Made by a program: the position numbers and the translations under genes | Part shown: one piece after another, positions 12,757 to 16,150 of the stretch | Layout: every line of letters starts with the position of its first letter | Numbering within the stretch: position 1 is the stretch's first letter | Origin: a phage | Length of the DNA stretch: 64,000 bases | Reading direction: 5' to 3' (one strand) | Sequence record: PZ452591.1 | The notes under the pieces: generated by a model | Told to the model about the DNA's origin: nothing | The model's database searches: none | Seen by the model: the letters and a program-made list of their open reading frames with translations, nothing else

Positions 12757-13617
12757 TTACACCGCCATCTTTCCTTTAATTGGCGGGTGAGATACATAGT
12801 TGTTAAGAACAAAATTATGCGGCTTTGCGAATTGACTCAACCAAAATACCTGCGATTCTGTGTCCCATTCATCAAATTCATCTGGAAATTTTAATTGCAA
12901 TTCGCATAAATCCATAGGTTCACGACGCAAAATTTCTTTACATTGTTCTACGTGATTCATATAGATATGAGTATTACCACCAGAAAATATCAAATCTCCA
13001 GGAATAAGATTACACATCTTAGCTACAATATGAACTAACGTAGCATATGATGCAATATTAAATGGAAGACCGAGGAAAACATCTACCGAACGTTGATACC
13101 ACTGCAAATCCAAATAGCCATTACGCACATTAAACTGATAGAACATATGACAAGGCGGTAATGCCATATATTTAAGTTCAGCTGGATTCCATGCAGAAAC
13201 AATTTGACGCCTATCATTTGGCAATTTTTTAATACGATCAACAACTTCTATAATTTGGTCTACACCGCCAAAATCGCGCCATTGTTTTCCATAAATTGGA
13301 CCAAGTTCACCGCTATGGTATCCTAAATCTTTTGCTTGATTTTCGTAATTTTCATCCCAGACTGTTTTGCCTTGAATTAATGAATCATGTTGAATTAATC
13401 GTAAATCATTGACATTTGTGCTTCCCGATAAAAACCATATTAGCTCAGCAATGCAAGCTTTCCAGGCGAGCTTCTTAGTTGTTACTGCAGGAAAACCTTT
13501 AGTTAAATCCCAGCGTAATTTAGTACCGAACAAAGCAATTGTTCCTGTGCCCGTTCGGTCATCGGTTTCATAGCCATTTTCAAAAATGTCTTTAATTAAA
13601 TCTTGGTATTGTTTCAT
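12757..13617 (-). CDS. td: thymidylate synthase, 286 aa, uninterrupted
   Basis: ATG at 13615-13617; continuous 286-aa ORF, no intron or I-TevI-like ORF. Confidence 0.93.
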   Translation of the reverse strand: MKQYQDLIKDIFENGYETDDRTGTGTIALFGTKLRWDLTKGFPAVTTKKLAWKACIAELIWFLSGSTNVNDLRLIQHDSLIQGKTVWDENYENQAKDLGYHSGELGPIYGKQWRDFGGVDQIIEVVDRIKKLPNDRRQIVSAWNPAELKYMALPPCHMFYQFNVRNGYLDLQWYQRSVDVFLGLPFNIASYATLVHIVAKMCNLIPGDLIFSGGNTHIYMNHVEQCKEILRREPMDLCELQLKFPDEFDEWDTESQVFWLSQFAKPHNFVLNNYVSHPPIKGKMAV

Positions 13618-13662
13618 TTAGTACCTTATATAAATTATAATACATTTTATGAAGCTAAATAA

Positions 13663-14010
13663 TCAATACGGTTTAGCATCAAATTTTCTCTCAATTTCAG
13701 GCGTGAAATATAATTCTTTACCGCGTTTGGAAAAGCGACCAATAATATGATAATTATTCTCATCAAACGTAATATTACCAATATCCATAGCTTTCAACCA
13801 AATATCGATATTTCTATCCAGCTTTATGTCAAAATTCCAATACGGAGAACTATTACCGAAAATACTGCAAGCGGATTCAGTGAAACAGCTACTATAAATC
13901 TTGTCTTTAGGAACTACTAATTGATAGACACCTTTAATAAACTGAGGACCCTGCCACTTTGGCTGTTTCGCGTCTTCTTCTAATAGAATAGGGTAATAAT
14001 TAAAATTCAT
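13663..14010 (-). CDS. hypothetical protein, about 115 aa, between frd and td
   Basis: in-frame ATG at 14008-14010; fills the space between frd stop (14031) and td start (13617). Confidence 0.5.
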   Translation of the reverse strand: MNFNYYPILLEEDAKQPKWQGPQFIKGVYQLVVPKDKIYSSCFTESACSIFGNSSPYWNFDIKLDRNIDIWLKAMDIGNITFDENNYHIIGRFSKRGKELYFTPEIERKFDAKPY

Positions 14011-14030
14011 ATTTTCCGTCACGCGTTATT

Positions 14031-14859
<829 letters not shown>

Positions 14860-15169: not shown

Positions 15170-15397
15170 TTATTTTTGGATTAAGCCCATATAAAATTTA
15201 GCATCTTCAGGATACATGCCATCACAATACTCATTGGTCATAAAACTAATAAGGTCTTCAAGAGGACCTTGGACCTCAATTTGAATACTAAAGAATTGGG
15301 TATCTTTAATGTAAGCCATACTCAAAGAAGGATAACGATTGCGGATAACTTCGTAAGTGTATTCAAAATCAACAATATCAATATTAACCTTAGCCAT
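15170..15397 (-). CDS. hypothetical protein, about 75 aa, paralog A (frd.x family)
   Basis: ATG at 15395-15397 preceded by GAGGAAAATAA; about 50% identical to the 15880-16107 ORF. Confidence 0.55.
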
Positions 15398-15426
15398 TTT
15401 ATTTTCCTCATGTAGTTGATAGGGTA

Positions 15427-15456
15427 ATAGTATCACACTACTACCCTACTGTAAAC
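15427..15456 (-). promoter_or_regulatory. early promoter (-35 GTTTAC, 18-bp spacer, -10 TACTAT)
   Basis: minus strand GTTTAC at 15451-15456, TACTAT at 15427-15432; lies within an inverted repeat AGGGTA...TACCCT. Confidence 0.45.
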
Positions 15457-15879: not shown

Positions 15880-16107
15880 TTACTGTTCAATAAATCCTGT
15901 GTAAAATTCTACATCTTCAGCATCCATACCGTCGCAGTATTCATTAACCATAAACTGTTTAAGACGATTTAAAGGACCTTCAATAACAACTGAAACATTA
16001 CAATTAGGATCATTTAGTGCGCTTATGATACTAAGTTCAGGATAACGATTACGAATAATTTCTTCAATATATTCAAAATCAACAACATCAATATCAATTT
16101 TAGCCAT
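15880..16107 (-). CDS. hypothetical protein, about 75 aa, paralog B (frd.x family)
   Basis: ATG at 16105-16107 preceded by GAGGAAAATAAT; paralog of 15170-15397. Confidence 0.55.
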
Positions 16108-16150
16108 ATTATTTTCCTCTTTAATCATCAGCAGTATTGCCGATAGTTGT

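Follow-up and report, generated by a model that had tools for sequence, protein, structure and literature searches.

Why do the genes for dihydrofolate reductase (frd) and thymidylate synthase (td) overlap in bacteriophage T4 while an additional open reading frame (ORF) separates them in a close relative, and which of the two arrangements is the derived one? The question is raised by a stretch of 64,000 nucleotides of phage DNA (record PZ452591.1, hereafter the window), in which a minus-strand ORF of 115 codons occupies positions 13663-14010. The original prediction, drawn from the sequence alone, presented it as an extra gene inserted between frd and td; the position, length and translation given there are exact. 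Taken as a whole, our data are most probably explained by a gene family that is maintained in T4-like phages and housed in the frd-td interval, common in T-even phages and lost by T4.

The frd-td interval in the window and in T4

The flanking frd and td genes are 98-99% identical to their T4 counterparts. From the frd stop to the td start the interval measures 413 bp (13618-14030), and not 387 bp as first given. In it, the 348-bp ORF is flanked by spacers of 20 bp (towards frd) and 45 bp (towards td). The original prediction is right that frd and td are adjacent in T4 (NC_000866): the coordinates of frd (145109-145690) and td (from 145112) leave no gap, the two genes overlapping by ATGA. A homolog in T4 itself, named in the original prediction as the observation that would speak against it, was sought both at the junction and genome-wide and was not found. 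In the complete T4 genome (1804 six-frame ORFs), the family hidden Markov model (HMM) retrieved no homolog (best E-value 0.5).

The two arrangements are related through a short direct repeat. The 9-bp sequence TAAATGAAA occurs twice in the window (Table 1), and conservation of the two copies extends to T6, RB27 and Lutter. T4 carries a single copy, and alignment with the window identifies the T4 junction as the exact recombinant across the two repeats, the end of frd and the start of td matching those of the window identically up to the repeat. Compared to the T4 junction, where the overlapping ATGA couples frd and td translationally, the window has an additional 417 bp containing the ORF and a promoter-like spacer. 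Unlike in T4, its td gene is both apart from frd and intronless; no Rfam family, group I introns included, reaches its gathering score within the window.

The simplest reading of the overlapping frd-td arrangement would be a microhomology-bounded deletion of 417 bp in the T4 lineage. T4 is read as the derived, deleted state because of the distribution of the ORF and the outgroups presented below. Recombination between the repeats would have fused the end of frd with the start codon of td, with loss of the promoter-like spacer as well. The junction may thus represent a clean natural example of how such a deletion yields the well-known frd-td overlap.

Several observations identify the ORF as a gene. 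Hundreds of phage records annotate identical or near-identical proteins, and both length and position are kept in homologs down to 26% identity. The ratio of nonsynonymous to synonymous substitution rates (dN/dS) is 0.05-0.17 between close Tequatrovirus copies (pairwise Nei-Gojobori) and also against two metagenomic homologs of 63-66% identity, where synonymous sites are unsaturated. For these reasons, sequence comparison indicates that the ORF is a true protein-coding gene under purifying selection and not a chance reading frame. No second copy or paralog is found elsewhere in the window. The ORF listing gives a 119-aa reading frame with a GTG start (13663..14022), which includes the 115-aa form beginning MNFNYYPILLEEDAKQPKWQGPQFIKGVYQLVVPKDK at an internal ATG. 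The GTG start is less likely since it is not preceded by a Shine-Dalgarno-like sequence, whereas GGA is located 4 nt before the ATG, in the 20 bp that follow frd. A few database entries use the 119-aa version; one homolog (P0002) also begins 4 codons upstream.

Family membership and distribution

The ORF matches PHROG 1928 (E-value 8.2e-36, residues 4-111 on profile positions 2-125 of 126), a catalogue family without assigned function, and is a plain member of it, with no difference found. The match is full-length. The absence of a recognisable motif was confirmed: neither the single sequence nor the 24-member profile matches Pfam, NCBIfam, PADLOC or PDB sequences. Database entries for phages NBG2, HP3 and 107 contain the identical protein, and the corresponding 90% cluster has 154 members, all named 'hypothetical protein'. 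This name is used in the T6, RB27, NBG2 and HP3 records, among others; the T6 GenBank record additionally notes the ORF as RB32ORF229c. The ORF is therefore not new to the catalogues, being present both in GenBank and in PHROG 1928. It is an already catalogued accessory variation of an ordinary kind, and nothing points to a new kind of system.

Deposited labels are inconsistent across four records (MZ501067, OR125554, OM386666 and OK274152), where the ORF is called 'putative homing endonuclease', 'putative glucose-1-phosphate adenylyltransferase' or a second 'dihydrofolate reductase'. Domain searches returned no Pfam or NCBIfam family and no support for the homing-endonuclease or adenylyltransferase labels.

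An exhaustive HMMER search of 1.84 billion representatives identified 21 genuine relatives, all of 95-116 aa; the proteins added by a broader profile search were all single-domain, with lengths of 113-148 aa. Neither search revealed any domain fusion: all members are single-domain proteins of 95-148 aa. Two longer HMMER hits (P0021 and P0023) were rejected as repeat artefacts. The family is restricted to T4-like phages.

The ORF is found by tblastn at an amino acid identity of at least 90% in 363 phage records, including T2, T6, RB7, RB27 and RB33, and homologs of less than 60% identity occur in 218 records of other genera. A 71-bp probe spanning the T4 junction detects the empty arrangement in only 32 records. 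They comprise T4 with its laboratory derivatives, RB55, RB59 and a small number of isolates, among them vB_EcoM_112, G28, F1, HY03 and SG1. Judged by these counts, T-even phages normally carry the ORF, the exceptions being T4 and a few of its close relatives. The term 'inserted' consequently has to be abandoned, since the ORF represents the majority state and the T4 junction fits a deletion between the repeats. The description as a lineage-specific accessory gene survives in part: the gene is accessory, being absent from T4 and from about 135 other T-even records, but it is not lineage-specific, since the presence/absence survey found it to be widespread in Tequatrovirus, with homologs in other Tevenvirinae genera. 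A T4-centred view of this locus would need correction: at the frd/td junction T4 appears derived, and most of its relatives carry an additional conserved gene.

The position of the family is constant. Among the matches listed, homologs in annotated records adjoin or overlap a dihydrofolate reductase or thymidylate synthase gene. Loci were also fetched from Kanagawavirus, Jiaodavirus, Winklervirus, IMG/VR contigs and metagenomic contigs, and wherever a homolog was present (20 loci) its place was the frd-td interval. Homologs at this position in other Tevenvirinae genera share 26-45% identity and often occur as 2-3 tandem paralogs. In several lineages the neighbouring ORF of the interval is indeed a paralog of the same family (family profile E-values 1e-8 to 1e-22; all match phrog_1928), and one contig has three tandem family copies. 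One paralog subfamily exhibits an additional 'PTI..[FY]K..P' insertion after the conserved Trp.

Invasion of an ancestral T4-like frd/td junction by a mobile element, either a free-standing homing-endonuclease gene or its remnant, is highly improbable. The 9-bp duplication flanking the segment and the 'putative homing endonuclease' annotation in phage FriedrichZschokke would agree with it, as would the many seg and mob genes that sit between conserved genes in T4-like genomes. However, the protein is only 115 aa long and has no GIY-YIG, HNH or other nuclease domain. Distant genera carry the gene in this slot with 26-45% identity and tandem paralogs, unlike sporadic homing genes, and the presence of the td intron and of I-TevI is independent of the ORF. 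The label itself seems to be an annotation slip, as I-TevI bears the same one in a sister record. A homing endonuclease of the GIY-YIG, HNH or LAGLIDADG type, as in the MZ501067 label, was also rejected directly: there is no significant Pfam match in the ORF or in 24 family members, the alignment has no invariant acidic or His residues, and the frd-td position is fixed and non-sporadic. The idea that the empty allele spreads along with the td intron through I-TevI co-conversion was discarded because many of the 197 intron-bearing records also have the ORF; the two occur together in T6, RB3, RB5-10, NBG2 and PST.

The slot is not simply occupied or empty. An unrelated 68-aa ORF (phrog_9550) lies exactly at the frd/td junction in about 135 T-even-type records, including pSs-1, Sf21, fPS-65 and JS98; it is found neither in the window nor in T4. 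Phapecoctavirus genomes carry a copy of about 43% identity, and for this reason the 68-aa ORF looks horizontally mobile. A metagenomic T4-like contig (L024) has the 115-aa ORF, a 113-aa paralog and the 68-aa ORF jointly between frd and td. Because all three are present together there, the three states of the Tequatrovirus slot look like different reductions of a fuller ancestral interval, generated by differential loss. Identities in the comparison of this contig with the window are 63% for the ORF (L024:4001-4348 against 13663-14010), 48% for Frd and 78% for Td (for the 68-aa ORF, which the window lacks, the value is 81%), suggesting either that the ORF evolves more slowly than Frd or that the cassette was swapped between lineages. 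The alternation of the 115-aa ORF, the 68-aa ORF or nothing at one slot flanked by conserved genes is shared with the variable small-ORF slots (hyperplastic regions) of T4-related genomes (reviewed in PMC2993671). Compared to the occupants of those regions, the ORF of the window is unusually widespread and well conserved, with tandem paralogs in other genera.

Predicted structure and possible roles

The structure prediction called for in the original prediction gave a confident result. An initial model based on 4 close sequences was poor, with a predicted local distance difference test score (pLDDT) of 57. It was replaced by an AlphaFold2 model built on the 24-sequence alignment, which has a pLDDT of 90.7 and a predicted template modelling score of 0.83. 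The modelled elements are strands at residues 6-12, 27-34, 62-64, 86-96 and 99-104, a helix at 68-77 and a short strand at 80-82. The order of these elements along the chain fits that of a five-stranded oligonucleotide/oligosaccharide-binding (OB) barrel, in which a helix separates strands 3 and 4. Structural matches to the model are weak and nearly all are OB folds (HIN, Teb1, Cdc13, RPA14/32, Stn1-Ten1, RMI and SSB), none of the similarities to solved OB domains being significant in the structure comparison.

Residues W19, G27, G91, K95 and G97 are invariant in the family, and Q16, Y29, F93 and F102 nearly so. The family alignment has no conserved acidic, His, Ser or Cys residue, as an enzyme would require. 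Most members are mildly basic, with an isoelectric point (pI) of about 8-9. The model and the alignment lead us to propose, tentatively, that the protein is a non-enzymatic binding module consisting of a single small beta-barrel domain, with the OB-fold-like order β1-β2-β3-helix-β4-β5. Its expression would be early or middle, together with that of the nucleotide-precursor genes. It could bind its partner via a conserved aromatic and basic patch (Q16, W19, Y29, F93 and K95), candidate partners being single-stranded nucleic acid and proteins of the machinery for replication and dNTP (deoxynucleoside triphosphate) synthesis. It would be useful yet dispensable on laboratory hosts; dispensability is suggested by the absence of the ORF from T4 and the approximately 135 other T-even records. 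The family combines restriction to T4-like phages, a confident predicted model without fold relatives, strong purifying selection and an unchanging place in the cluster of nucleotide-precursor genes.

This position might reflect a function in the thymidylate cycle itself. As an accessory of the dNTP-synthetase complex, the protein would bridge or regulate Frd and Td, in a manner comparable to the linker of the bifunctional dihydrofolate reductase-thymidylate synthase, or bind a folate or nucleotide ligand. In its favour, all homologs examined are located between frd and td, and this holds across genera with different neighbouring small ORFs. Overlap of the gene's frame with the frd stop in several genera suggests translational coupling, and the ORF of L024 is better conserved than the Frd of the same contig. 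We nevertheless regard this role as unlikely. The gene is wholly absent from T4, in which the dNTP-synthetase complex was defined, and also from the other ORF-less T-even records. The protein has no ligand-binding or enzyme motif, and early-region synteny is high in T4-like phages generally.

A host-range or counter-defence factor is also conceivable, with a probability that we place well below even. It would inhibit or decoy bacterial immunity or a host protein, and would be kept or lost depending on the hosts met. Presence, absence and replacement (three alleles) at one slot among very close relatives are typical of T-even accessory genes, and the protein is small, single-domain and phage-restricted, without cellular homologs, and encoded in the early-gene region. 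On the other hand, strong purifying selection and conservation across genera at a single fixed locus would be less expected of a fast-evolving counter-defence gene. No characterised inhibitor in PDB or BFVD is similar, and no literature was found. The lack of any matching family in PADLOC-DB (0 families) has no bearing on this idea, since that database holds defence proteins and not counter-defence proteins.

In a more specific scheme, quite improbable in our estimation, the proteins would be a structurally new small beta-barrel family whose unvarying place between frd and td reflects function, either as a phage-specific accessory subunit or regulator of the thymidylate cycle, with the paralogs forming heteromers, or in shielding the pathway from a host defence that targets nucleotides; T4 would have done without it.

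Some points weigh against a maintained interval gene lost by T4 and against the binding module proposed for its product. The fixed position may stem from the general synteny of the early region in T4-like phages and not from a functional tie to frd and td. The direction of the event, deletion in T4 as opposed to insertion elsewhere, is inferred from distribution and outgroups. The ORF of L024 is closer to that of the window than is its Frd, which leaves room for horizontal exchange of the cassette. The window protein itself is near neutral (pI 6.6), and full-text literature searching gave no mention of the ORF.

Expression context, feature coordinates and neighbouring genes

The spacer between the ORF and td contains a promoter-like sequence composed of TTGATT and TATTAT separated by 18 nt (9/12 matches in a consensus scan). 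A MotA-box-like sequence, TAGCTTCA, lies between the two hexamers. In phage Lutter (NC_054924) a promoter is annotated at the same place. The spacer may act as a promoter (predicted at 13637-13666) before td. The features of the locus, together with those of other phages and contigs that occupy the equivalent interval, are collected in Table 1.

Table 1 Coordinates of features in and around the frd-td interval (window positions unless a locus is named)
Feature	Position	Strand	Remarks
td (thymidylate synthase), downstream flank	12757..13617	minus	286 aa, uninterrupted; intronless
Direct repeat TAAATGAAA, copy 2	13612..13620	minus	across td start codon; 417 bp from copy 1
ORF-td spacer, from ORF stop codon to td start	13618..13666	minus	promoter-like sequence; absent from T4
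PHROG 1928-family ORF	13663..14010	minus	115 aa; ATG start at 14010, TGA stop 13663-13665
Possible 4-codon N-terminal extension	14011..14022	minus	GTG at 14022, 119-aa form
Direct repeat TAAATGAAA, copy 1	14029..14037	minus	across frd stop codon
frd (dihydrofolate reductase), upstream flank	14031..14612	minus	98% identical to T4 Frd
68-aa ORF (phrog_9550)	L007:388-594		phage UTI-E4, OL870317; same slot as window 13618-14030
Tandem paralogs between frd and td	L005:2814-3188, L009:909-1301, L003:2826-3185, L008:3245-4288, L024:4332-4673		all phrog_1928

Other differences from T4 are observed upstream of frd. An 84-aa ORF (14605-14859, minus strand) runs at its end into the frd start. With no homolog in the T4 genome, it is a second gene of this cluster that is extra relative to T4. 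Further upstream, two paralogous frd.3-like ORFs (15170-15436 and 15880-16128, minus strand) are present where T4 has a single frd.3. They are 51% identical to each other and 68-69% identical to T4 frd.3. Over 12 kb, the window shares no more than about 96.6% identity with the nearest records in the collection, those of phages ES19 and ES21; the source is therefore a distinct mosaic Tequatrovirus.
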